Sequence record: OQ850291
Direction: 5' to 3' (one strand)
Length of the DNA stretch: 51,534 nucleotides
From: Escherichia phage vB_EcoS_ULIM2
The notes beneath the pieces are model-generated. The model saw nothing but the letters and a program-made list of their open reading frames with translations, had not been told where the DNA came from and did no database searches. How positions within the stretch are numbered: the first letter of the stretch is position 1; each line of letters begins with the position of its first letter. This document shows positions 12,332 to 39,748 of this stretch, piece after piece. The position numbers and the translations under genes were made by a program.

Positions 12332-12562
12332 TTACCACTCCTTAGTTTTAACTGACACCTTACCGCTAAAGTTTCCCTGGTTGTCGTCTGATGAAAGACC
12401 TTTGAATCGCATGTCAATCTCGCCAGACGGAATCTTATTGCCATCAACGAATCGCATCATGCAAGATCCGTAAGCGTAAGTAACGCAGTCTCCATTTTTA
12501 AGATTCTGGGCGCAACCAGTCAGGATGAATGCAGCAGCAATAATGGTGATTAACTTTTTCAT
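12332..12562 (-). CDS. cor: Small outer-membrane lipoprotein, Cor-like superinfection exclusion candidate (76 aa)
   Basis: Signal peptide with lipobox LTGC; placement next to tail genes as for Cor in T1-like and lambdoid phages; identity by analogy only. Confidence 0.45.
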   Translation of the reverse strand: MKKLITIIAAAFILTGCAQNLKNGDCVTYAYGSCMMRFVDGNKIPSGEIDMRFKGLSSDDNQGNFSGKVSVKTKEW

Positions 12563-18835: not shown

Positions 18836-19288
18836 TTAACTAAAAATGCTATTGGTCGTTCCGATATCTTCCTTCTTCACAACCCGCATGAATTTCTTGT
18901 TCTTGCATCGCTTCTCAAGGCACTTGCCGTTACCATCAAACTTGAGGTCGAATCTCAGCCATGCTGCGCGGTATCCTTTACACCCCTGTCGGCGGTAAGC
19001 GCGATGCGCAGCCTCAGCACCTTGCCACGAAATCATGTTGCGTTCTTTCCAGCCTTGCACCGTCTGATTTGTTACTTTTAGTGCCTTTGCGCATGCCGCA
19101 GGGCCACCATAATATTCGATAAGCGCATCAAGTCGTGCTCGCAATCCAGCGCGTGTTTCTTCTTTATGAATATAGAATCCGCAGCGCTGTCGTGGCTTTT
19201 TGTCTTTACCGCGTCGAGTTCCGTTGTTACCATTGATGTGACGTTTATCGATTTCACCAGTTGACTCCGCGATGCGTTGAATACTCAT
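18836..19288 (-). CDS. Putative DNA-binding protein with Cro/YdaS-like helix-turn-helix (150 aa)
   Basis: AKALKVTNQTVQGWKERN resembles Cro/YdaS-type HTH; basic termini; a palindromic box lies in its leader. Confidence 0.45.
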   Translation of the reverse strand: MSIQRIAESTGEIDKRHINGNNGTRRGKDKKPRQRCGFYIHKEETRAGLRARLDALIEYYGGPAACAKALKVTNQTVQGWKERNMISWQGAEAAHRAYRRQGCKGYRAAWLRFDLKFDGNGKCLEKRCKNKKFMRVVKKEDIGTTNSIFS

Positions 19289-23368: not shown

Positions 23369-23600
23369 TGCGGACGACTACCAGACGATCTGGATTGGGA
23401 AAAAACAGGTTAAGCAAATCCCTTTCTCTGACTGGTTGCCACCTGACTTTGTTAATGTGCTTTGCACTATCGGTATTGAGCAGGAGTTGCATATAGGTTA
23501 CTACTCACCAGGCCGAAACAGTATGATGCTTGAGGTTGACGGAAAACTTGTTGAGCTTAAATCTTCGGATCTAGGATTCTGGTTAAAGGCTGTGGCATGA
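23199..23600 (+). CDS. Hypothetical protein (133 aa), overlapping the previous ORF in another frame
   Basis: ORF-track ORF; C-terminal half looks protein-like; true start unresolved. Confidence 0.35.
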   Translation: MLALSQTARFHLWKICREKCIEFQQLHHLSFTAKRERELREKENPQKTESLPGLNINADDYQTIWIGKKQVKQIPFSDWLPPDFVNVLCTIGIEQELHIGYYSPGRNSMMLEVDGKLVELKSSDLGFWLKAVA

Positions 23601-23678
23601 AACTTTATTTTGCTGTAGTATTAACACCGCTAATTTCATTTTCAGTAATGTATTTCATTATCATTTAAGGATTAAAAT

Positions 23679-25122: not shown

Positions 25123-25188
25123 GCGTTGTATCAAGTAAATTTGAAGGTTAAAATCGACTCACTTGTTCAAAAAATATATGGTGAGATT

Positions 25189-25404
25189 ATGAAAGAATTT
25201 TTAACAGCAGCTACGTCAAGCACTGGCGGTGCTTCGTTGGTAGGGGCGGCGACAGGGCAACTTTATATTGCTGGCGCTACATTCATTTGCTTTTTGCTTT
25301 TTGGCGCCTGGGGCGCATACTGGAAGTATCGTGATAGTAAGGCAATTCAGGAAGCGTTAAACGATGGCGATCTAAATAAGGCACTTAAGATCAGGGGGAG
25401 ATAA
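25189..25404 (+). CDS. Holin, pinholin-like (71 aa)
   Basis: Small membrane protein with a Gly/Ala-rich first hydrophobic segment and a second TMD ([15 protein letters not shown]); directly upstream of the endolysin; ATG at 25189 with GGTGAG RBS. Confidence 0.55.
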
Positions 25405-25892
25405 TGAGTTTAAAAAATAACGTTATAGGCGCATCAATCGGGGCCGCTTTGACGTTGACACCTACCCTACTTGAACGAATCGAAGGTATAGAATACGAGG
25501 TGTATTACGATATCGCCGGAGTCCCTACCGTATGCAGCGGAATAACCGGGCCTGACGTCATACCTGGTAAGAAATACACTAAGCGAGAATGCGATGCATT
25601 GTTGATAAAACATATCGGCGTCGCTCAGCGATACGTAGACAAAAAGGTGAAGGTTGATATCCCGGTAACTATGCGCGCATCACTGTACAGCTTCACTTTC
25701 AACGTTGGTACTGGCGCGTTCGGATCTTCTACAATGCTTAAGCTAATAAATCAGAGTAAGCACAGGGAAGCGTGCAATCAGTTATGGCGATGGGTATACT
25801 ACTACAATCCAAAAACCAAAAAGCGCGAAGTGTCTAGAGGACTCAAGAACAGACGCGCTGAAGAATACGCGTATTGCGTTAAGGAATTATGA
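25404..25892 (+). CDS. Endolysin, T4-type lysozyme (GH24) with possible N-terminal SAR segment (162 aa)
   Basis: Catalytic E-x8-D-x5-T spacing in [19 protein letters not shown]; N-terminal [17 protein letters not shown] is a weakly hydrophobic Gly/Ala-rich stretch. Confidence 0.75.
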
Positions 25893-26293
25893 TGAAACTT
25901 AAGAAAACGTGCATTGCAATTACGGTTGCTGTTGGTGTGATTTCTCTATCCGGTTGCTCGACGGCATCTGCTCTGAGTGGTTTACTTTCTGACTCCCCGG
26001 ATGTTACGGCGCAGGTTGGCGCTGAGAACACAAAACAACTAGCAGGAGTCACAGCAAAGGCAGATGATAAGCGAGAAGTGAAGGTGAGTGATTCAAATAT
26101 TGGAAAGATTGACTCATCTGTCAAGAAGTCTGTGGAGGTATCAACCATTCAGGCCAATACGGTTAACGCTGAAAGCATCACAGTAACAAAACCGGAAAAC
26201 TGGTACGATGCAATTGTAGGATGGACTCTCGTTTTCATTGGCCTATTGCTGGTTTATTTTTCAATTCGTAAGGACGAAAAAAAGGAGGCGTAA
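25889..26293 (+). CDS. Unimolecular spanin candidate (134 aa)
   Basis: N-terminal lipoprotein signal with lipobox LSGC plus C-terminal TMD ([13 protein letters not shown]); last gene of the lysis cassette. Confidence 0.55.
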
Positions 26294-26307
26294 GCCTCCT
26301 TTCTTTT
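26284..26307. terminator. Bidirectional terminator between the lysis cassette and the minus-strand accessory block
   Basis: GGAGGC-gtaa-GCCTCC with A-run upstream and T-rich run downstream. Confidence 0.6.
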
Positions 26308-26521
26308 ATGCATCAGCCCACATGTAACTTTCGTTAGTGAGTTTTTCGTATTCGCGAACTTCAATTTCACAGGTGTCTCCGTACATCTCAGCTACCTTTT
26401 TCTCATTCGCTACCGCTGATTCCTCGGTCCATCCATCAGCCTTGCTGTAAAGGGTAGGAATCTCACTGCTAGTGCCGTTAGAGTGGTTGTAAACGCGAAC
26501 TACTAAAAATTTGTTAGCCAT
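26306..26521 (-). CDS. Hypothetical protein (71 aa)
   Basis: ATG at 26521 preceded by AAGGAAAG RBS and conserved leader; the track ORF (to 26647) runs through its own promoter. Confidence 0.5.
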   Translation of the reverse strand: MANKFLVVRVYNHSNGTSSEIPTLYSKADGWTEESAVANEKKVAEMYGDTCEIEVREYEKLTNESYMWADA

Positions 26522-26558
26522 GATGCTTTCCTTCATGTCGTTTCGTTTCGATGAAACA

Positions 26559-26601
26559 AATATACCCGATACGAGATCGGGTGTTTTAACAAAAAGTGCT
26601 A
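26559..26601 (-). promoter_or_regulatory. Box-type promoter (leftward)
   Basis: Minus strand TAGCAC-N4-TGTTA (26587-26601), 22 bp, TATATT (26559-26564) inside inverted repeat CCCGAT/ATCGGG. Confidence 0.5.
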
Positions 26602-26710
26602 TTTGTATCTTTTGACATGGAGAAGCAACTCCCCCTCCTGGTCGCAAAGATTATGCTCTCTGTCGCCGTTGGCCCTCATTGAAGTGAGCAGCAGACTCAA
26701 CAATCCTTGT

Positions 26711-27118
26711 TCAAATTCCTCTTTCGTAAGCTGGAGTCTTGCGCACAATTCGACGTTCCGATCTATCAATGTTTCTACGTTCGCCAAACAATTCTTCATC
26801 ACTCATTTCTCCAATGTGCATCATCTCCCACGTATACCGATTGTTGTAGCCATCAATACACATCAGCTTCATCATTACCGGGCGTTTGATCTTTCCCTTG
26901 CACCAGTAAAATCCATCCTTGCAATCAAGATACCCCTCAGTTACACAGCGTGAGCAAAACTCCTTAGATAGCGCACTTGTAAATTCACGGCGAGTCATCC
27001 CGGCGGCCTTAGCAAATCGCTCACTTTCCTTGTGGGCGTATATAAATTTCGCTATGTGCTGCCGAGTGTATTTGTCGTAACCTTCGCAGAACCGGAACAG
27101 ATCTAAAAGAAGAAGCAT
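26711..27118 (-). CDS. Hypothetical Cys-rich protein, possible zinc ribbon (135 aa)
   Basis: First ATG at 27118 just after the upstream stop; CSRC ... CKDGFYWC Cys pairs. Confidence 0.45.
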   Translation of the reverse strand: MLLLLDLFRFCEGYDKYTRQHIAKFIYAHKESERFAKAAGMTRREFTSALSKEFCSRCVTEGYLDCKDGFYWCKGKIKRPVMMKLMCIDGYNNRYTWEMMHIGEMSDEELFGERRNIDRSERRIVRKTPAYERGI

Positions 27119-27122
27119 ATTA

Positions 27123-28691
27123 TTAACCAATCAGTCGAGGATTGATGAAAACAATATCATCAATTCGGCAAGTGTAGTTCATCTCTTCGAGCGTTATAAG
27201 AAGGCTGTCGATTCTCTCAGCGACCTTCTGTTGCCCGTTGAACGGAGTAACGTTACGACACTTCGCTACAATGCTATGAATCGGTGCGCGGCCTTTGTTC
27301 TTCTTCGCGATCTCAGTGATAACATCAATCAGCTTACGAGATTCAGCCTCATCACCAGCATACCCGGCAGCGCTGGCAGACGACAGATAAGTCCTGGAAA
27401 GCTCATTGAAGATCATGATCGCTTCCTGCATTGTTTCAAGGTCAATCTCGCGATTTGCGCGGTTCGGTGATTCACCCTCCCAATTCTTGATCGTGTGAAG
27501 AACTGAAGCAATACGCAATGCGTGCTTATCGAACTTACCGAGATGACCGCGAAGCATTGAGTGAGAGTATTTCCCCCCAGCGGCGAAATCCGGTTCCATC
27601 GCCTGTCGTGCAAGGTTTAATTCACGCATAGCGTTACGGCTTACAGAGAGAACAACGTTATCCTCCTTCATGATGTTATGCACGAGTCTGTAATATTTGC
27701 TAACCAGTCCGCGATCGACTTCTTTATACAGTGCATCACCATTTTCATCACAAAGAATACGAGTACCTAAAAGCGGTTCCTCACGAACCAGAAGGAAGCG
27801 CTCAGATACACCGATACCGCGCTGGCCTGCGTCCATGATACCCTTGATTGTTTCATCCTGCGCAATGACGCAGATCGAACCGACCGGACACAGAGACAAG
27901 TTATTATCCTGGTTGGAACGCGCGACCTCCATATGGTTTTTATCCCAAGCCTTAAGGATAAGCTCACTGTTAGATTTCTTATCTGAGCCGCCATACGTAA
28001 GCCCGAGCAATGTATTGATTGCCGTTGCCTCGTCAGATATTACGGAAAAGTGACCTTGCACTGCCGCCACTTTCGCAAGACCTTCAGGTGTAGGATCTGA
28101 TACCGCGAAAACAATATCAGCCATCTTCTTGATCTTCTCTTCCAGTTTTTCTTTGTCCTCGTACAGAGCCGCCGTCGTGTTGCCTTTAGGATCGTTTTTT
28201 ATTTCCTTCTCGACCTGACGTAGCTGACTGGTTAAACGGATGCGTTCCTTTTTACGCTCTTCATTCAGTCGCTGAATCTCCGCACGCATAGGTGTAATCG
28301 CCGCTGAGTTAATCGCTGATTTACCTGTTGATGGTGGCTGACTGATTACCATGTAAAGCGCTGTCGGCTGTTCTTCTCCATGATATTGCACCCAAAACTT
28401 CCCGAGCATCGCGGCTGAGATGCAACCGATAAAATGAGCATACGCGGATGAAACCGGGAACTGGACTGATTCAGCTTTTGCTTTTGCATATTCGAATACC
28501 AGGTTATCGCCACCTAACGAAATCAGAGGGAACTTATCGTTTCCGCTGTTGATATCGATCGGATCTTGCCAAAAAGAAACTGAATCCCCATAACTGTTTT
28601 CACGAATTGCGATCGCCACCGGATTAACTCCAGTGCTATTTGCGATCTCAATAATCTGTTGGTAATTCAGTTTTGGCTTAATATTAAACAT
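27123..28691 (-). CDS. P-loop ATPase, possibly DUF3987-like replication-associated protein (522 aa)
   Basis: Walker A-like QPPSTGKSA and Walker B-like FSVISDEAT; ATG at 28691 with AAGGAG RBS. Family assignment is from memory. Confidence 0.45.
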   Translation of the reverse strand: MFNIKPKLNYQQIIEIANSTGVNPVAIAIRENSYGDSVSFWQDPIDINSGNDKFPLISLGGDNLVFEYAKAKAESVQFPVSSAYAHFIGCISAAMLGKFWVQYHGEEQPTALYMVISQPPSTGKSAINSAAITPMRAEIQRLNEERKKERIRLTSQLRQVEKEIKNDPKGNTTAALYEDKEKLEEKIKKMADIVFAVSDPTPEGLAKVAAVQGHFSVISDEATAINTLLGLTYGGSDKKSNSELILKAWDKNHMEVARSNQDNNLSLCPVGSICVIAQDETIKGIMDAGQRGIGVSERFLLVREEPLLGTRILCDENGDALYKEVDRGLVSKYYRLVHNIMKEDNVVLSVSRNAMRELNLARQAMEPDFAAGGKYSHSMLRGHLGKFDKHALRIASVLHTIKNWEGESPNRANREIDLETMQEAIMIFNELSRTYLSSASAAGYAGDEAESRKLIDVITEIAKKNKGRAPIHSIVAKCRNVTPFNGQQKVAERIDSLLITLEEMNYTCRIDDIVFINPRLIG

Positions 28692-28720
28692 CACAATAAA
28701 CTCCTTAGTTGACGGTGTGA

Positions 28721-28763
28721 ATGATACACCGCCAATGGTACACGCGTTTTGCAAAAAGTGCTA
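28721..28763 (-). promoter_or_regulatory. Box-type promoter (leftward) for the ATPase gene
   Basis: Minus strand TAGCAC-N3-TTGCAA (28749-28763), 22 bp, TATCAT (28721-28726). Confidence 0.45.
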
Positions 28764-28767
28764 TTGG

Positions 28768-29184
28768 TTATAAGTATTTGGCCTCAAAGGTTGTGCCGTC
28801 AGCAATACTAAAACCCACCTCTTCGCGGAATAAGGTCCAGCGGCAACCATCCTCATCAAAGATGTAACCAGCCACTCCACCGAGAGCGCGACCGCTTTCC
28901 ACCTGGTAGCGTTTGCCAACTTTGAATGATTTTTTCATTGGGTTGCGATGGTCAAGCCCGGTGCATTTTAGTGTCTTCGTTTTCAGTTCTACGAATGTTG
29001 CATTAAGCGGATTACCCAATGAGTCTTCACCATGTGCGGTCATTTTATCAAGCACATGCCAATGCTTAGGCGCGAACTGAACTGAGATATTACCCCCATC
29101 GTCTATGCGTCCTTTATAAAGTTTGTTTGCTTCAAAGAATAATTTCATGGTGGATGAGGTGCATTTGAGTTTGATACTTTTCAT
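28768..29184 (-). CDS. Hypothetical protein (138 aa)
   Basis: ATG at 29184 preceded by the conserved AACCAATCAGGAGA leader. Confidence 0.5.
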   Translation of the reverse strand: MKSIKLKCTSSTMKLFFEANKLYKGRIDDGGNISVQFAPKHWHVLDKMTAHGEDSLGNPLNATFVELKTKTLKCTGLDHRNPMKKSFKVGKRYQVESGRALGGVAGYIFDEDGCRWTLFREEVGFSIADGTTFEAKYL

Positions 29185-29263
29185 TGAATATCTCCTGATT
29201 GGTTATCTTGAACAAGGCCACTTTAACAAATGACCTTGCGGCAATATTAACAAATCGTGCTAT

Positions 29264-29476
29264 TTACCACGGGATATAATCGTCGTCTAAATCTTCGTTT
29301 TTTGGTTCTTCTGGTAATTCAAAGTCAGGATCAAACTCACTTTCTTCGTCCATATTCATATCACCCAAAGCCTCTTCAAGCGTTATTTCTTTATACGCTA
29401 CCTTGATACACCATTCAGCACTAAGACCAGCATCAAGAGCGCCAAAATAACGAGTCCAGAAATTATCCCGTTCCAT
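29264..29476 (-). CDS. Small highly acidic protein with SSB-tail-like C-terminus (70 aa)
   Basis: ATG at 29476 with GGAG 9 nt upstream, coupled to the upstream gene; C-terminal 35 residues are rich in D/E and end DDDYIPW. Confidence 0.5.
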   Translation of the reverse strand: MERDNFWTRYFGALDAGLSAEWCIKVAYKEITLEEALGDMNMDEESEFDPDFELPEEPKNEDLDDDYIPW

Positions 29477-29480
29477 TAAA

Positions 29481-29705
29481 TTAACTCCATGAATTAATGT
29501 AAATTGAGTTAGCCTCAAGAGTAGCGCGCACATCCGCATCTGTTGCATTTACTAAGCGCGAGCCTGGCGTGCTGCCAATAACGTTATTACCGTTACGAAC
29601 CTTAGTTACCGTCATTGAAACAAAACCGGAAGACTTATCCATTTTGATAACTACACGTCCTTTCGCGTTCAGGTGCTTGATGATATTCTCAGCTTTAATG
29701 CTCAT
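29481..29705 (-). CDS. Hypothetical basic protein (74 aa)
   Basis: ATG at 29705 with AAGGAA RBS downstream of a box-type promoter. Confidence 0.5.
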   Translation of the reverse strand: MSIKAENIIKHLNAKGRVVIKMDKSSGFVSMTVTKVRNGNNVIGSTPGSRLVNATDADVRATLEANSIYINSWS

Positions 29706-29738
29706 TTTTAATTCCTTTATTTCGTTTGGTGTAGGAGT

Positions 29739-29782
29739 AATATACCTTACTCCATATTTATTGTCTTTAGCAATTAGTGCTA
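29739..29782 (-). promoter_or_regulatory. Box-type promoter (leftward)
   Basis: Minus strand TAGCAC-N3-TTGCTA (29768-29782), then TATATT (29739-29744) within inverted repeat GGAGTA/TACTCC. Confidence 0.45.
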
Positions 29783-29922
29783 TCAGTACTCGGAAATTAC
29801 TTTACACTCTTTGATTGTTCCACCTAGAACTACTTTCTGCATCATTGCTTTTTGGTGGCTATCGTAAACGCGAACATTTTTTACGCTGTTAAATTTGCCA
29901 GTATAGAAAGTGTGAATATAAA

Positions 29923-30246
29923 TCATTTTTTACCGTCCCAGGTTTGATACGCCGTTACAAGGTTAATGCTATGGTCGAACTCGTCAATGCTAAGCGATCC
30001 GATTCGAACCAGTTCTTTGTCATGCTTGATATCAATCATCCGACTGTACGGATGGCCTGGCACGTATTTGAACAGTCGTTTGCTGTCGGCAATATCAGCG
30101 TTTATTCCGTAGAATCGGCCCACCGCCGCCTTAACGCGCTCCATGATGTTTTTTTCGTGGATTGCTGCCGCGTTATTCAGTGCGACTACCGTACTTCCGT
30201 TAATCTTCGGTGATTTCGTTGTGATTTTGTAAGTGTGGTTCATCAT
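29923..30246 (-). CDS. Hypothetical protein (107 aa)
   Basis: Tandem ATG ATG at 30246 preceded by AGGGGG RBS just after the upstream stop. Confidence 0.45.
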   Translation of the reverse strand: MMNHTYKITTKSPKINGSTVVALNNAAAIHEKNIMERVKAAVGRFYGINADIADSKRLFKYVPGHPYSRMIDIKHDKELVRIGSLSIDEFDHSINLVTAYQTWDGKK

Positions 30247-30259
30247 TCCCCCTAACCAG

Positions 30260-30460
30260 TCAGGATAGATTTCGCGCTTCATCAATGATAACAGGCTCAA
30301 GGCGTTCAAGTCGAACGCGGAACGAGTTCATAAATCCTTCGTTGTTCCTCAGTAGTTCGAATGCGTCTGTAGCTTCAATTGCGCTATTTCCCATGTAGGC
30401 AACTACGCTCTTTTGCGTCTTGCGTGAGATCGCCACAACGCGGTAAATATTATCACTCAT
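30260..30460 (-). CDS. Hypothetical protein (66 aa)
   Basis: ATG at 30460 overlaps the upstream gene's stop by 8 nt. Confidence 0.4.
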   Translation of the reverse strand: MSDNIYRVVAISRKTQKSVVAYMGNSAIEATDAFELLRNNEGFMNSFRVRLERLEPVIIDEARNLS

Positions 30461-30824
30461 ACAATGCCTCCTTGACTCGATCCGCAATGCGGGAGTTGAC
30501 GGTGATTGAGTAGTTAGCCACGCCCCATAATGCAATATTGCCAAGCTCGGTACGCATAGATGGATTGTTAAGTTGAATGATTGTCTCGCCAGTATCGTCA
30601 TCTACGAAACGAGACACGCCAAAACGGTCCACCACGCGCGTTACACGGTTCACGCACTCCATTGCATCACTTACGCCGTAATAAGCGCTCAGAGCGGCTC
30701 TCACGGCCTTCTCTTGCTTGTTGTAAATCTTGCGCGCGATGTTCTCGATCGCCACGCTTTCTTTCTCGTCAGTCTGGATTGCAGTGCTGGCTGAAAAGTC
30801 CAGATCTGTGAACTGATTAAACAT
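30453..30824 (-). CDS. Hypothetical protein (123 aa)
   Basis: ATG at 30824 preceded by leader CCATCAACAGCGAGCGAGGAAAG and a box-type promoter. Confidence 0.5.
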   Translation of the reverse strand: MFNQFTDLDFSASTAIQTDEKESVAIENIARKIYNKQEKAVRAALSAYYGVSDAMECVNRVTRVVDRFGVSRFVDDDTGETIIQLNNPSMRTELGNIALWGVANYSITVNSRIADRVKEALYE

Positions 30825-30855
30825 GATTCTTTCCTCGCTCGCTGTTGATGGGGTG

Positions 30856-30898
30856 ACTATACCAGCCATCCCGGATGCGCGTTTAGCAAAAAGTGCTA
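30856..30898 (-). promoter_or_regulatory. Box-type promoter (leftward)
   Basis: Minus strand TAGCAC-N3-TTGCTA (30884-30898), 22 bp, TATAGT (30856-30861). Confidence 0.5.
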
Positions 30899-31060
30899 TT
30901 CGATAACTTCCTTTGGAACGACCTTGATCTCATCAAAGAAGTTAGTCCTGTCATTCTCAGTGAGATTCTTGATCTCGTTAGCTTTGCTCTCGGTCGAGCA
31001 TATCTCGATCAGTTCGTCACCTTCATAGTAGATTGCTCCCACCACGCAATATACGATCAT
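30896..31060 (-). CDS. Hypothetical protein (54 aa)
   Basis: ATG at 31060 with AGGAG RBS; start uncertain because the predicted -10 of the box at 31085-31099 would overlap it. Confidence 0.35.
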   Translation of the reverse strand: MIVYCVVGAIYYEGDELIEICSTESKANEIKNLTENDRTNFFDEIKVVPKEVIE

Positions 31061-31102
31061 AAACTTTTCTCCTGGGTTAGTTATTAACAAAAAGTGCTAT
31101 AC

Positions 31103-31207
31103 TCAGCGACCAACTGCATCCATAATGATTAAGAACATGATCGCGACCAGGCATCCTGACAGAGAGAAAAGCACCGATCCCATTGCATAATTAAAAAACT
31201 TTGTCAT
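31103..31207 (-). CDS. Small hydrophobic membrane peptide (34 aa), not in the ORF track
   Basis: ATG at 31207 five nt after AGGTGG; translation MTKFFNYAMGSVLFSLSGCLVAIMFLIIMDAVGR; coupled to the upstream gene. Confidence 0.45.
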   Translation of the reverse strand: MTKFFNYAMGSVLFSLSGCLVAIMFLIIMDAVGR

Positions 31208-31209
31208 AA

Positions 31210-31440
31210 TTACCACCTGAAACTATCGATAGTGTCATTAATGTACTTCACCTGGGCCTCTACGTCGGACGTGGCAATGTACTGGAAAGTGTCGTAATCT
31301 TCCCAAAGGTCGACAATCTCAACCTTAGTATGATGCTCTTTCAAGCCTCCCATGTGACCATAATGCGTACGGTAGACGATGAATCCCTCATTACTTGCTC
31401 GCTGGATTGCTTTCTTTAAACCTGGGTGCTTTATTGCCAT
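31210..31440 (-). CDS. Hypothetical protein (76 aa)
   Basis: ATG at 31440 preceded by the AACCAATCAGGAGAA leader. Confidence 0.5.
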   Translation of the reverse strand: MAIKHPGLKKAIQRASNEGFIVYRTHYGHMGGLKEHHTKVEIVDLWEDYDTFQYIATSDVEAQVKYINDTIDSFRW

Positions 31441-31471
31441 CCTGTCATTCTCCTGATTGGTTGATGTGTTC

Positions 31472-31514
31472 ACTATACCCCGATTCCCTTCGGGGAGTTT
31501 AGCAATTCGTGCTA
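31472..31514 (-). promoter_or_regulatory. Box-type promoter (leftward)
   Basis: Minus strand TAGCAC-N3-TTGCTA (31500-31514), 22 bp, TATAGT (31472-31477) within inverted repeat CCCCGAAGGG/AATCGGGG. Confidence 0.5.
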
Positions 31515-31850
31515 TTAAGCAATGTCGAACTCAGCGGCATATGCTTCCTTGATGCCAGCTTCACGCATGGTGCGCTTGCTGATTTTGCGCGGGAATTTGT
31601 ACTGACTGTTAGGCATAACCCACCAGAAGCAGGCAGTTTCACGAACGATTTCATATTTACCGTAACGGGTGAATATATCGCGTTCTGAATCCGGCTGATT
31701 AACACAGGTCAGGAATTTAGCTGCCTTGTCTTCAGTTTTGATTTCTTCCCATACGAAAGAATCCATACCGTTAACATTGCAAGCTACCATGATGTACTCA
31801 ACGCCGTTTTCGATTTTGATGATTTCGTTACCGCGATTTTCGTATTTCAT
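31515..31850 (-). CDS. Hypothetical protein (111 aa)
   Basis: ATG at 31850 preceded by CAGGAGCAGGAAA RBS region and leader CATCGAAACGAG. Confidence 0.5.
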   Translation of the reverse strand: MKYENRGNEIIKIENGVEYIMVACNVNGMDSFVWEEIKTEDKAAKFLTCVNQPDSERDIFTRYGKYEIVRETACFWWVMPNSQYKFPRKISKRTMREAGIKEAYAAEFDIA

Positions 31851-31888
31851 TTTCCTGCTCCTGATGTTTATCTCGTTTCGATGAAGTA

Positions 31889-31931
31889 ATAATACCCCAT
31901 CGTGAGATCTGGCGTTTAGCAATTCGTGCTA
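31889..31931 (-). promoter_or_regulatory. Box-type promoter (leftward)
   Basis: Minus strand TAGCAC-N3-TTGCTA (31917-31931), 22 bp, TATTAT (31889-31894). Confidence 0.5.
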
Positions 31932-31932
31932 T

Positions 31933-32019
31933 TTAACCCATCCTTTCAATTACAAGGAGCATTACCCAAACCGCTAAGACTAACTGCATCATCATAGCTA
32001 ACAAAAAGAACTTATTCAT
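31933..32019 (-). CDS. Small hydrophobic membrane peptide (28 aa), not in the ORF track
   Basis: ATG overlaps the TGA of the upstream gene (ATGA); GAGGAA RBS 7 nt upstream; translation MNKFFLLAMMMQLVLAVWVMLLVIERMG. Confidence 0.4.
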   Translation of the reverse strand: MNKFFLLAMMMQLVLAVWVMLLVIERMG

Positions 32020-32831
32020 ACTGATTCCTCACTGGCGAATACCTCGCAAGATTCACTGCATGAGCCTGTGTCGAATGATTTTGCCCCACGAACCCTTGCG
32101 GCTACCTCATCCCTCGACTGTGGAAACATCTGTATAATGTCACCGAGTGAGCGCCTTCCTCTGTACATGTCAGATGAAGACTCTTTCTTGTTGTGCTCAC
32201 TGATTGTGTTAATGAATAGCCTTGCAAGCTCCGGCTCATCCTTACAAGCAAGAGCTAGCTTGAGTTCTGACTTCTTGATGCAGAAAACGCAGTTACCAAG
32301 GTGTTCATCAATCCCAAGATCGAAAGGCATGTCACGCCAGAAGTTGATAACGTCCTGCTTATCAAAGTCAGATATGTCTGCAAGGTAACTGAACCCATCA
32401 GCTGCCTTTAATCTCTTTGGCTCATCCGCACGAATGCCAATCCATCGCTGATAATTACCCTTGCCATACTTCTTCTCGCAATACTTTTCAAATGGCTTAG
32501 TCTTCATCCTGTTTGTACAGAATGCACCTCCCTGGTATGGATTTCCGTACTTCCTTAGCATTCTTATCCACCCAACAAGATCGTGATGAATATCGTCCAC
32601 GCTTACAACTTCGAATGATGGGGTTCCGCGGAACTTATCGCTTGGCAAGCATCTTAAGCAAGTTATACCCCTGGGAATCATTGACGATACATTTCGAATA
32701 AACTCATAAGTCATTGGATGTTCTGCGCCAGTGTCCATGTAAATAACCTCAGCGTCAGGATAAATCTTGAGAACCTCAAGTGTCATGTATGCCGAAGTCC
32801 TGCCACCACTAAAACTAATTACCTGATTCAT
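32016..32831 (-). CDS. PP-loop ATPase of the PAPS-reductase-like family (271 aa)
   Basis: N-terminal ISFSGGRTSAYM PP-loop (SGGxxS) motif; ATG at 32831 with AGGGG RBS; the track ORF (to 32900) runs through its promoter. Confidence 0.55.
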   Translation of the reverse strand: MNQVISFSGGRTSAYMTLEVLKIYPDAEVIYMDTGAEHPMTYEFIRNVSSMIPRGITCLRCLPSDKFRGTPSFEVVSVDDIHHDLVGWIRMLRKYGNPYQGGAFCTNRMKTKPFEKYCEKKYGKGNYQRWIGIRADEPKRLKAADGFSYLADISDFDKQDVINFWRDMPFDLGIDEHLGNCVFCIKKSELKLALACKDEPELARLFINTISEHNKKESSSDMYRGRRSLGDIIQMFPQSRDEVAARVRGAKSFDTGSCSESCEVFASEESV

Positions 32832-32865
32832 TTCGACCCCTATCTGTGAGCTAAATAACAACTGC

Positions 32866-32909
32866 ATAATAGCCAATCCTCCGCTACTGGTCGTTAGCAA
32901 AAAATGCTA
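32866..32909 (-). promoter_or_regulatory. Box-type promoter (leftward) for the PP-loop gene
   Basis: Minus strand TAGCAT-N4-TTGCTA (32895-32909), 23 bp, TATTAT (32866-32871). Confidence 0.45.
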
Positions 32910-33099
32910 TTCCAATAATTGCTCATTATTCCATCAATTGTGGAATATGTGGAATAATTCTGATTGTTATTGATTGCGAATGACGAAACGTGATTATTGC
33001 ATGATGTGCAACAGTTGGTTGATTTGTTGATGAGAACGCAATGATTGTTAGAGGGAGGATCTGGTGTTGCCCGGCTCGCCTGGTAGTCATCTCCATTTT

Positions 33100-33114
33100 T
33101 AGCAAAAAGTGCTA
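33100..33114 (-). promoter_or_regulatory. Second palindromic box upstream of the PP-loop gene, no obvious -10
   Basis: TAGCAC-N3-TTGCTA on the minus strand; the position 22 bp downstream is not -10-like. Confidence 0.35.
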
Positions 33115-33391
33115 TCGATTACGATTATGCTTGATTGTGTGTTAATCCATGTATATGATTTGCATAAATCGCAATCGTAGACAAAATTACACCAAATTAC
33201 GCCCTATAATATACATATAGATATATGTATATATATAATATATAAGTGTTTTTTTATTTATATATATAGATACTATTATTTGTAATATGGCTGTATAGCG
33301 TGTCTACTATGTTAATCGTTGGATGCTCTGGTTATGATATTCATGTTTATATATACAGTAGTTTTATCGGCTCATATTTATATGGGAAAAG

Positions 33392-33418
33392 CGATTAACA
33401 CGATTAACACGATTAACC
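33392..33418. repeat. Three tandem copies of a 9-bp unit (CGATTAACA)
   Basis: CGATTAACA CGATTAACA CGATTAACC read directly, inside the AT-rich divergent region. Confidence 0.6.
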
Positions 33419-33442
33419 ACACTTAAAATCGGCTCGCGAGCA

Positions 33443-35676: not shown

Positions 35677-35904
35677 ATGCCACGTTACAGCAACCTAACT
35701 CAACTAACCCGCGTCAACGGGCACATGATTCCGGCAAAATCCACTCACTACGCAATTGGCGCAAAACACGGATTATATTTCAAGTGGCGCGGTCAATGGA
35801 ACTTCACAGCGGTGAGTAATTTCTACATGCGCGTTCCTGGCGATGACCCGCAATCGGTAGTAGAAAACTCAATCGGTGACAACAAGATCGAGGTGATGAA
35901 ATGA
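35677..35904 (+). CDS. Hypothetical protein (75 aa)
   Basis: ATG with GAGGAG RBS. Confidence 0.5.
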   Translation: MPRYSNLTQLTRVNGHMIPAKSTHYAIGAKHGLYFKWRGQWNFTAVSNFYMRVPGDDPQSVVENSIGDNKIEVMK

Positions 35905-36011
35905 ACTTCAATACAATTGCCTTATGGTCTGCCGTCTGGTTCTTCTGCATGGGTCATGCCATTGTTGGGATCGTAATCATGTTACTACTGTGTGCCGGAG
36001 CGTTTGAATGA
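35901..36011 (+). CDS. Small hydrophobic membrane peptide (36 aa), not in the ORF track
   Basis: ATGA overlap with the upstream stop; translation MNFNTIALWSAVWFFCMGHAIVGIVIMLLLCAGAFE. Confidence 0.4.
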   Translation: MNFNTIALWSAVWFFCMGHAIVGIVIMLLLCAGAFE

Positions 36012-36181
36012 TGCGCATTCTAATTTGCATGATGGCGGCAGTCGCCATAACTATCCTGGTTGTGTCCGGCTGCGGAGAGGTAAAAGAGCGATGTCATGAA
36101 ACCGGGAACCAGGTTACTACGTTCGTGATGGTCGGCAACGTATTGCTACCAATCACATCAAATGAAATCACTTGCGAATAG
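36008..36181 (+). CDS. Small putative lipoprotein (57 aa), not in the ORF track
   Basis: Overlaps the upstream stop; signal-like N-terminus MMRILICMMAAVAITILVVSGC with lipobox VSGC. Confidence 0.4.
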   Translation: MMRILICMMAAVAITILVVSGCGEVKERCHETGNQVTTFVMVGNVLLPITSNEITCE

Positions 36182-36812: not shown

Positions 36813-37319
36813 ATGTTAAAATTAGAAGACGTAAAATTCCCGATTAAGTTTATCAGCAATGGTTGCGGTGAAATTACATTCGCCAGTGAAGATAAGGGCA
36901 AATGGGCCACTGATGAGGTGTCTGAGCTTAAGTTGGATTGGTTTATCGCCAGACATAACGAAGTGAATCAAGAAAATTCACCCAATAAGGACTACTACTA
37001 CATTATGAGTGGCGGTCAGGGTGTGAAAGGCATGTTTGATGGCTGGAAGATTGAAGGCTCTGTTTTCCGTTCTGAAAAGCCAGAAATCAAGCCAATGCTA
37101 CAGTGTACTCAGATCGAGAACATGCCATTGAGCGCCACGATAAAAGGCGTTCAGATTAGCGATGAATCATGGATCGAGATTACCGCCACGCCTAAAACTA
37201 TTGAGGTACATGATGATGTGGTGATTCTCCTGTTGCATTACGGCAGCTTTAAGCACAAGACTGTATCAGGTGAAATCAGCATTAAGCGCGGAACGCTTGT
37301 ACGATACGAGGTGAAATAA
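36813..37319 (+). CDS. Hypothetical protein (168 aa)
   Basis: ATG with AGGAAA RBS. Confidence 0.5.
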   Translation: MLKLEDVKFPIKFISNGCGEITFASEDKGKWATDEVSELKLDWFIARHNEVNQENSPNKDYYYIMSGGQGVKGMFDGWKIEGSVFRSEKPEIKPMLQCTQIENMPLSATIKGVQISDESWIEITATPKTIEVHDDVVILLLHYGSFKHKTVSGEISIKRGTLVRYEVK

Positions 37320-37468
37320 TGACGGCGTGGATTTTGATTATCTTGATGAGTACCGGGGCGGATCACGTATACATGAACAGCCAGCAATCATGCAACGAGG
37401 CTCAGGCAGTTATTGCAGAGAATAAGCCGTTCGGGTACGAAGTGAAAACGATGTGTGTTAAAAAATAG
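37319..37468 (+). CDS. Small protein with hydrophobic N-terminus (49 aa), not in the ORF track
   Basis: TAATG overlap with the upstream stop; translation begins MTAWILIILMSTG. Confidence 0.35.
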   Translation: MTAWILIILMSTGADHVYMNSQQSCNEAQAVIAENKPFGYEVKTMCVKK

Positions 37469-38478: not shown

Positions 38479-38512
38479 GGGGAATCGGCTCTGAACGGTT
38501 CCCCTTTCTTTT
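38479..38512 (+). terminator. Rho-independent terminator
   Basis: GGGGAA-N14-TTCCCC followed by TTTCTTTT. Confidence 0.5.
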
Positions 38513-38524
38513 GGAGAAAACACT

Positions 38525-38635
38525 ATGCCAGACTTTTCTAATTGGAAAAACGAACCTCCATCATTTCAGGAGTTGTTATTCTGCCTCCTGGTTCTGACGC
38601 TATCTCTTAAGGGGGTGTTATGGCTACTATCATGA
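38525..38635 (+). CDS. Small peptide with hydrophobic C-terminus (36 aa), not in the ORF track
   Basis: ATG 7 nt after GGAG; translation MPDFSNWKNEPPSFQELLFCLLVLTLSLKGVLWLLS; overlaps the start of the next gene. Confidence 0.3.
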   Translation: MPDFSNWKNEPPSFQELLFCLLVLTLSLKGVLWLLS

Positions 38636-39108: not shown

Positions 39109-39641
39109 TGGATAAAATTACCATTTGGGGCCAGGCAATCAACCTATTTCTCGGCACGCGCCGCGTAGCAATCTTTGACTTTGACGGAACACTTAGCGAT
39201 GGATCTGGTCGACTTCACCTGCTACCTACAAAGGATTTGCACTTAACTGAAAGCTGGTCCGAGTTTAACCGCGCGGCAATATTTGACAACCCTATCCAAA
39301 GCACGATCGATGTGATGAACTCTATGTTTGCCGCTGGGTATCATGTAATAATTTTAACCGGGCGAAGTGATGAGGTGCGTTACGCATCTGAGTTATGGCT
39401 TAAGCATCACGGCGCTCGATATGATTACTTAGTCATGCGACCGCACACCGATAACCGCAAAGACACGGTAATGAAAGAAGAGGCGGTGCGCGCTATCGGC
39501 ATTGATAACATTCTGGCGGCCTGGGATGACTCACCGCAAATTATTCCATTATTCCGCTCGCTTGGAATAACCACTTACGCTGTAGTTGACTATGGCGATA
39601 AAGTTCACGAACATTTAAAATCTCACGGGGTAGATGAATGA
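39108..39641 (+). CDS. HAD-family phosphatase, nucleotidase-like (177 aa)
   Basis: FDFDGTL (HAD motif I, DxDGT) near the N-terminus; next to a nucleotide kinase gene. Confidence 0.55.
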   Translation: MDKITIWGQAINLFLGTRRVAIFDFDGTLSDGSGRLHLLPTKDLHLTESWSEFNRAAIFDNPIQSTIDVMNSMFAAGYHVIILTGRSDEVRYASELWLKHHGARYDYLVMRPHTDNRKDTVMKEEAVRAIGIDNILAAWDDSPQIIPLFRSLGITTYAVVDYGDKVHEHLKSHGVDE

Positions 39642-39748
39642 ACCTTTACGAATTTATTGCAGCACATCCGGTATTGACGGTTATCATCCTGTTAATCATC
39701 AATCACACAATCATCAATGTGGCAAAATTATTTTTAGGGAGATACTAA
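39638..39748 (+). CDS. Small hydrophobic membrane peptide (36 aa), not in the ORF track
   Basis: ATGA overlap with the phosphatase stop; translation MNLYEFIAAHPVLTVIILLIINHTIINVAKLFLGRY; stops 1 nt before the kinase ATG. Confidence 0.35.
   Translation: MNLYEFIAAHPVLTVIILLIINHTIINVAKLFLGRY

Follow-up and report, generated by a model that had tools for sequence, protein, structure and literature searches.

Eight small, probably envelope-directed protein genes in the T1-like Escherichia phage vB_EcoS_ULIM2

Escherichia phage vB_EcoS_ULIM2 is a T1-like Tunavirus, and its sequence of 51,534 bp, analyzed here over its full length as a single window, contains several very short open reading frames (ORFs) in the gaps between larger genes. 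We propose, with a probability of roughly 75%, that eight of these ORFs are independent, genuinely translated small protein genes, whose products are directed to the cell envelope and do not form one family. Seven of them, s1 to s7, were listed in a preliminary description of this DNA and are numbered here in coordinate order; s8 was added in this work (Table 1). We infer translation, membrane topology, lipidation, and any function of s1 to s8 from what was observed in the DNA, namely, the ORFs, their coupling to preceding genes, their conservation, frame-specific purifying selection, and the patterns of hydrophobic segments, lipoboxes, and cysteines. New are the two uncalled genes, encoding the 28-aa s2 and the 23-aa s8, in a well-studied phage group; the other six were already known as hypothetical proteins. 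No concept is changed by these additions, as small hydrophobic ORFs are common in phage nonstructural gene clusters.

All seven ORFs of the preliminary description were found at the positions given there, and all start with ATG and have a Shine-Dalgarno-like sequence upstream. Its assertion that they possess good ribosome-binding sites (RBSs) or overlap the preceding stop codon was largely borne out. Six of the seven are coupled, via an ATGA overlap (s2, s3, s4, and s7), a TAATG overlap (s5), or a gap of 2 nt (s1); s6 is uncoupled, and the RBS of s7 is weak. This translational coupling puts the coupled ORFs inside operons of small uncharacterized nonstructural genes. When all ORFs of 20 to 59 codons in the gaps between larger ORFs were scanned, those on the coding strand that pair an ATG start with top hydropathy were s1 to s4, s6, s7, and the additional s8, with s5 scoring lower, and no ATG-start ORF of comparable hydrophobicity was found on the opposite strand of these gaps.

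Orthologs of s1 and s3 to s7 were taken from 8 to 11 genomes, and the ORFs were intact in every ortholog extracted. In the small-ORF region, nucleotide identity of the window to Shfl1, ISF002, S2_02, SA30RD, and LeonhardEuler/Bas13 amounts to 85 to 94%. The ratio of nonsynonymous to synonymous variation (pN/pS), pooled over non-independent pairs of closely related genomes and read as an indicator, was 0.26 for s1, 0.09 for s3 (10 relatives), 0.19 for s4, 0.14 for s5 (9 relatives), 0.17 for s6 (10 relatives), and 0.15 for s7 (8 relatives, among which the start codon varies between ATG and GTG). In the other two frames, values for s1 to s7 ranged from 0.5 to 3.8 (0.53 and 1.40 for s1), and frame-specific purifying selection was consistent across all seven listed ORFs. 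Conservation in syntenic relatives, on which the preliminary description had made its proposal depend, was found as well: s3 to s7 are kept in 8 to 10 Tunavirus genomes, s1 in SA12KD and in metagenome contigs, and s2 in four metagenomic lineages.

The added ORF, s8, recurs with unchanged length and position in T1, Bas13, ISF001, pSf-2, and Sfin-1, and its counterpart in Badaguanvirus IME347, MFGYFGVVFTPVIAFTLIYLIVM, shares 65% nucleotide identity with it. None of these six genomes carries an annotation for s8. Its variable sites are distributed 7/4/14 over the three codon positions, and pN/pS was 0.48 in frame versus 1.05 and 1.44 off frame. Each of s1 to s8 is intact in diverged relatives and displays a synonymous or third-position bias in the proposed frame only. 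We regard all eight as evolutionarily supported protein genes, which are presumably translated.

The preliminary description considered the ORFs to be unannotated, which applies to s2 only; the other six listed ORFs are GenBank proteins of ULIM2 (accessions in Table 1), and exact protein matches also tie the window to this phage. Four orthologs, those of s3 to s6, are annotated in the T1 record (NC_005833); they agree with the ULIM2 genes in size, order, and overlaps and share 84 to 97% amino acid identity with them. Coding sequences of equal size are annotated in Bas13, pSf-2, ISF001/002, and others. In particular, s6 is annotated in T1, Bas13, Sfin, and DELF2, and s7 in Bas13, CLB_P3, Sfin-3, and AV106. 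T1 differs in having no s7 counterpart, with the HNH endonuclease ST63 in its slot, and in lacking the region that holds s1 and s2. The core Tunavirus genes among the eight are s3, s4, s5, s6, and s8, and s7 is common to the eight close relatives carrying it. The two remaining genes, s1 and s2, are accessory and situated in a mosaic right-end region, where relatives carry DNA methyltransferase or HNH genes. A homolog of s1 that is 76% identical, SA12KD_52, is labeled membrane-embedded, the exact s1 sequence is present on 15 metagenome contigs, and when 1.84 billion representatives were searched by phmmer, s1 retrieved one other 50%-identity cluster only.

The suggestion that the ORFs represent a family did not hold, as no detectable homology links the seven. 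Full-length matches in PHROGs assign s3, s4, and s5 to three different families (phrog_25570, E = 3.6e-27; phrog_8628, E = 2e-28; and phrog_5579, E = 5e-25, respectively), and s1, s2, s6, and s7 had no significant PHROG match. Neither does the characterization of the peptides as almost entirely hydrophobic fit all of them. It is appropriate for s1, s2, s3, and s7; s4, s5, and s6 have one hydrophobic segment each, and the grand average of hydropathy of s5 is 0.05.

Approximate insertion energies (dG) were calculated by summing Hessa-scale contributions. By this estimate, dG was below 0 for one segment of 17 to 21 residues in s1, s2, s3, s6, and s8 and also for the signal peptide of s4. Transmembrane segments were predicted at residues 12 to 28 of s1 (dG, -3.0), 4 to 24 of s2 (dG, -3.3), and 17 to 35 of s6 (dG, -1.5). 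The protein s5, with a dG of +5.3, is polar save for about 12 N-terminal residues and contains the conserved cysteines Cys25 and Cys46. From these features, s1 to s7 are predicted to comprise five or six single-pass membrane microproteins, the lipoprotein s4, and s5 as a signal-peptide-like periplasmic miniprotein.

The lipobox VSGC noted in s4 by the preliminary description proved well founded. Rule PS51257 calls for K or R among residues 1 to 7, an h-region without charged residues, and the pattern [LIVMFWSTAG]2-[LIVMFYSTAGCQ]-[AGS]-C, with the Cys at positions 15 to 35, and s4 conforms to it with VVSGC22, a motif almost unchanged in 19 of 21 homologs. Cys29 and Cys56 are likewise nearly invariant among the 21 homologs. 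In total, 22 homologs were found, all Tunavirus-like, and one of them carries the UniRef name "Lipoprotein." The AlphaFold model, with a mean predicted local distance difference test score of 71.6, shows a helix at residues 2 to 19 and strands at residues 29 to 42 and 45 to 56, placing Cys29 and Cys56 at the ends of a hairpin. Judging by this model, the mature 36-aa s4 is probably a beta-hairpin closed by a Cys29-Cys56 disulfide. In P0187, a diverged s4 homolog, the lipobox is missing (…IIIILSYDD…), and the hairpin region and both cysteines are kept. Therefore, in some phages the hairpin may be displayed from a transmembrane anchor instead of a lipid anchor. With its small size, its predicted lipidation, and its additional cysteines, s4 resembles the receptor-blocking phage lipoproteins Cor of T1, phi80, and N15 and Llp of T5. 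However, neither s4 nor s1 had any Pfam match at E ≤ 1, and the mature s4 has only 36 aa, modeled as a single hairpin. The idea that s4 is a homolog of Cor or Llp was rejected for the lack of a match to the Cor-type family PF24052.

It is possible, albeit unlikely, that s1 is a lipoprotein precursor as well, cut before Cys19 to leave a 16-residue lipopeptide in place of a transmembrane helix. It matches the PS51257 pattern, with K3, an uncharged h-region, and LSGC ending at Cys19, and the LSGC motif is identical in both known variants; since there are two variants only, this conservation is weak evidence. Processing is doubtful because the hydrophobic stretch continues past Cys19, and as it extends for 10 residues beyond the cysteine, Cys19 would sit mid-helix. 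A mature lipopeptide of 16 aa would also be unusual. We retain s1 among the predicted single-pass membrane proteins.

Direct searches for s2 were of little avail. It is not contained in a collection of 15 billion proteins, and neither tblastn nor blastn gave an s2 match in 50,697 phage records, where blastn with the s2 region retrieved the adjacent promoter-like motif only. IMG/VR held no match to a degenerate back-translated s2 pattern, a single-protein scan of that collection confirmed no relative, and an exact lookup of two candidate forms of the neighboring PAPS-reductase-like protein gave no record. Relatives were found by a homolog search with this neighboring enzyme, which yielded 2238 homologs, followed by reading the uncalled gap in the contigs of its closest relatives. 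Uncalled homologs of s2, with the sequences MNKFFLLAMIMQVFLAVWVMLLVIERLGQV, MNKFFFVAMMMQVLLAIWVMLLVIERVF, and MSKLFLVAMMIQVFLAIWVMLLVVEKIG, were thereby detected in three further lineages, which comprise L023/L024, L025-L027, and L035. The coupling of s2 to the PP-loop gene, pointed out in the preliminary description, is preserved throughout, as s2 overlaps the enzyme stop codon by ATGA in all four s2 lineages. The 28 variable sites are distributed 8/3/17 over codon positions 1/2/3, replacements are conservative only, and pN/pS is 0.26 in frame versus 1.3 and 3.4 off frame. The conserved ATGA overlap, the third-position bias, and the pN/pS ratio together identify s2 as a real, conserved, never-annotated gene of 28 to 30 codons in a narrow lineage. 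Fusion to the enzyme by frameshifting was excluded for s2 because an in-frame TGA lies four codons upstream of the s2 ATG (in the window and in L025); there is also no slippery heptamer.

Given the preserved overlap, s2 could conceivably serve the PAPS-reductase-like enzyme specifically, as its membrane partner or anchor, with translational coupling fixing the ratio of the two proteins; we consider this rather improbable. The ATGA overlap is kept in all four lineages even though the enzyme diverges to 65% identity, and in an unrelated phage lineage (L029-L032), whose enzyme is 64% identical to that of the window, a nonhomologous 33-codon hydrophobic ORF, MDRLRYIFLISIYLSGFVFFLFLVPYLAFIWHR, overlaps the stop codon of the enzyme gene, with a terminator-like hairpin behind it (L029, 2308-2409; the L031 ORF is identical, and L030 and L032 have the same layout). 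However, the Nouzillyvirus phages GaoY1-9D and p111, with about 85% nucleotide identity across the region, possess the enzyme gene and lack s2 entirely, as a clean 91-bp indel. Moreover, a small hydrophobic ORF at the stop codon was present in none of 76 other phage homologs of the enzyme gene, so that a general module of enzyme and transmembrane peptide was rejected, and the enzyme family is otherwise soluble. The stronger version, that s2 and its analog in L029-L032 are purpose-built partners by which an enzyme that probably modifies nucleic acids is tethered to the inner membrane or regulated there, has a slim chance of being correct. If true, an s2-type ORF and the enzyme would make up a new module of two components for anti-restriction or modification, which would have stayed hidden because a 28-codon gene falls below every gene caller's threshold. 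We treat s2 as an independent small gene.

Concerning the enzyme itself, its C-terminal motif G-S-C-x-E-S-C-E is invariant in 23 homologs. In other Tunavirus genomes, its slot is occupied by Dam/Dcm methyltransferases or an HNH endonuclease, which points to a cassette for DNA modification or anti-restriction whose content can be exchanged.

The preliminary description regarded s1 and s2 as a paralogous pair, that is, as copies of a duplicated M-x-K-F-F membrane peptide, and this too we judge to be rather improbable. Both proteins begin with M-(T/N)-K-F-F-x-x-A-M, and both genes end a transcription unit in one accessory region. However, the resemblance is confined to this N terminus and is not significant: hhalign, run with two small alignments, gave a probability of 20% over 11 N-terminal columns, and the local alignment score of 29 compares with 20.8 ± 3.8 for shuffled sequences (p ~0.04). 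The best variant pair reached a shuffle p of 0.005, but p was usually 0.04 to 0.1, and the unrelated pairs s2-s4 and s2-s6 gave 0.018 and 0.029. Furthermore, the L035 variant of s2 begins with MSKLF, and the motif is therefore not fixed. The phmmer search with s1 returned its own family only and no s2-like sequence, and an N terminus of this kind, with hydrophobic residues behind a lysine, is generic for membrane targeting. The two genes are counted here as independent.

As to the role of these genes, the likeliest site of action of s1 to s8 is the host envelope. Most of the ORFs would be translated by termination-reinitiation coupled to the preceding gene. The products s1, s2, s3, s6, s7, and s8 would insert into the host inner membrane as single-helix proteins. 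The lipoprotein s4 would be exported, lipidated on Cys22, and, with Gly at position +2, probably sorted to the outer membrane, where it would display a 35-residue disulfide-closed beta-hairpin. A signal-anchored or secreted periplasmic miniprotein with one disulfide is envisaged for s5. During infection, these products would bind and modulate host membrane proteins, and possible outcomes would be resealing or protection of the membrane after DNA entry, exclusion of competitors, or blocking of membrane-associated defenses, in a mode resembling that of the small regulators AcrZ, MgrB, KdpF, and CydX and of phage T4 Imm and Sp.

AcrZ, MgrB, KdpF, CydX, and MgtS bind larger membrane proteins and are often cotranscribed or coupled with the partner gene. 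The proteins studied here resemble them in having fewer than 50 aa and a single predicted transmembrane helix and in being often cotranscribed or coupled, but they are phage-encoded and share no sequence similarity with these regulators. In T4, superinfection exclusion is mediated by the small membrane proteins Imm and Sp. The likeness to these would lie in small size, phage origin, a predicted membrane anchor, and action on the envelope early in infection; however, no homology was found. In the T1 record, the orthologs of s3 and s4 (ST73 and ST72) lie within the left-hand 2.8-kb terminal repeat (1-2800). If the left end is the first to enter the cell, as is assumed here, this position would fit an immediate-early role, with both genes among the first available for expression. 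T1 infection reportedly causes early changes in membrane permeability (Keweloh and Bakker, 1984, as cited in PMC13407855). It is tempting to look among these eight presumably envelope-directed small proteins, five of them Tunavirus-wide including T1, s7 in most close relatives, and two accessory, for factors behind the membrane events of T1 infection that still lack an explanation; exclusion and counter-defense are further roles for which they are reasonable candidates.

Several points weigh against this proposal. The best segment of s7 has a slightly positive, borderline dG of +1.0, s8 is under only moderate constraint, s1 is known in no more than its two variants, and the pN/pS comparisons are not formal tests. 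Searches of Pfam, NCBIfam, PHROGs, and PDB revealed no homology to any characterized protein, and no literature was found on these small genes or on Tunavirus transcription. In addition, receptor-level exclusion is probably already covered by another gene of the phage. The gene at 12332-12562 (minus strand) encodes a Cor-type lipoprotein (PF24052, E = 3e-25) with the lipobox LTGC and 45% identity to T1 Cor over 53 residues, and it is likely the receptor-level superinfection exclusion gene.

A different activity at the same membrane would be that of damaging effectors, comparable to type I toxins or holins and used for host shutoff or lysis timing; to this we assign little probability. Size and composition of the peptides resemble those of TisB-, Ibs-, and Hok-type toxins and of small holins, and length and hydrophobicity are also shared with Ldr. 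However, no match to any toxin or holin family was obtained in Pfam or NCBIfam (antisense RNA was not looked for), and the ORFs are operon-internal, translationally coupled genes in a lytic phage, for which depolarizing the host during ongoing replication would be costly. None of them adjoins the lysis cassette, placed at ~25126-26293 by its position in the ORF list and matching by position the T1 cassette ST13-ST11 with its order of holin, endolysin, and spanin. Modulation of envelope proteins remains the reading that we prefer.

Finally, it is very improbable that T-rich spacers have produced these reading frames by chance and that the conservation stems from DNA- or RNA-level constraint on promoters, terminators, or leaders: the ORFs are very short, Phe, Leu, and Ile are readily encoded by T-rich sequence, several adjoin a highly conserved promoter-like module, and a terminator-like hairpin precedes s6, but variation piles up at third codon positions with low pN/pS in the proposed frame only in all eight, the start codon, the ORF length, and the geometry of the overlap persist down to 65 to 76% nucleotide identity, and none of the 76 other loci mentioned above has a small hydrophobic ORF at the equivalent position.

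Table 1. Small ORFs of the window, adjoining genes, and sites of the promoter-like module
Feature	Position	Strand	Description
s1	31103-31207	-	34 aa, MTKFFNYAMGSVLFSLSGCLVAIMFLIIMDAVGR; GGTGG, 5 nt, ATG; start 2 nt after upstream stop; WPJ69981
76-aa gene upstream of s1	31210-31440	-	Stop 2 nt before s1 start codon; SA12KD_53 counterpart
s2	31933-32019	-	28 aa, MNKFFLLAMMMQLVLAVWVMLLVIERMG; GAGGA, 6 nt, ATG; ATGA overlap with stop of PAPS-reductase-like gene
PAPS-reductase-like (PP-loop) gene	32016-32831	-	PF01507, E = 6e-8; context for s2
s3	35901-36011	+	36 aa, predicted membrane microprotein; GAGGTG; ATGA overlap; T1 ST73 ortholog; WPJ69995
s4	36008-36181	+	57 aa, predicted lipoprotein precursor; GGAG; ATGA overlap with s3; T1 ST72 ortholog; WPJ69996
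s5	37319-37468	+	49 aa; GAGGTG; TAATG overlap; T1 ST69 ortholog; WPJ69999
s6	38525-38635	+	36 aa, predicted C-terminal transmembrane segment (tail-anchored type); GGAG; uncoupled; T1 ST67 ortholog; WPJ70002
s7	39638-39748	+	36 aa, hydrophobic; weak GGGG; ATGA overlap with stop of polynucleotide kinase gene; WPJ70006
s8	23597-23668	+	23 aa, hydrophobic, MKLYFAVVLTPLISFSVMYFIII; ATGA overlap with stop of upstream 133-aa gene
Module sites, plus strand	17760, 19302, 21811, 22834, 23166, 24822, 34448, 35187, 36179, 36740, 37466, 38823, 40320	+	
Module sites, minus strand	32909, 31931, 31514, 30898, 29782, 29262, 28763, 26601	-	

With respect to genome layout, synteny with the T1 record indicates that the T1 map and the window are circular permutations of each other. 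The plus-strand genes from 33443 onward correspond to the left end of T1, from ST77, and the minus-strand genes at ~26300-32900 to its right end, from ST10 to ST1, followed by an accessory stretch missing from T1. Where the ends of the T1-type genome meet, at 30870-33440, lies a mosaic accessory region. The hairpin preceding s6 is located at 38479-38504, and s6 overlaps the next gene by 16 nt.

The promoter-like module, possibly of greater interest than the small ORFs, occurs at about 25 sites. Every copy points in the direction of local transcription and begins either at the preceding stop codon or immediately behind it. The module consists of TAGCAC-NNN-TTG(C/T)TA-AA, exactly 22 nt that often include a GC hairpin, TATAGT or TATTAT, the conserved leader (C)ATCGAAACGA, and an RBS. 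The exact palindrome TAGCA-N5-TGCTA was observed 12 times, with 0.03 occurrences expected. The 22-nt spacing exceeds that of a sigma-70 -35/-10 pair, and the palindrome, with its center near -42, would have class II activator geometry. By blastn, the motif is 96 to 100% identical over 25 to 35 nt in 75 phage records, mostly of Drexlerviridae; its sequence was found in no open-access paper. The TAG stop codon of s5 constitutes the first three bases of the module copy at 37466. Directly 3' of the s1 stop codon, at 31091-31102 (minus strand), a degenerate copy, TAGCACTTTTTGTTAA, runs into the RBS of the next gene without a -10-like box and looks like a decayed module. The gene at 18836-19288 (minus strand) encodes a 150-aa homolog of the T1 "transcriptional regulator" ST23, with a weak match to the P22_Cro helix-turn-helix domain (E = 2.5e-5, below the Pfam cutoff), and its product is a candidate for binding to the repeated palindrome.

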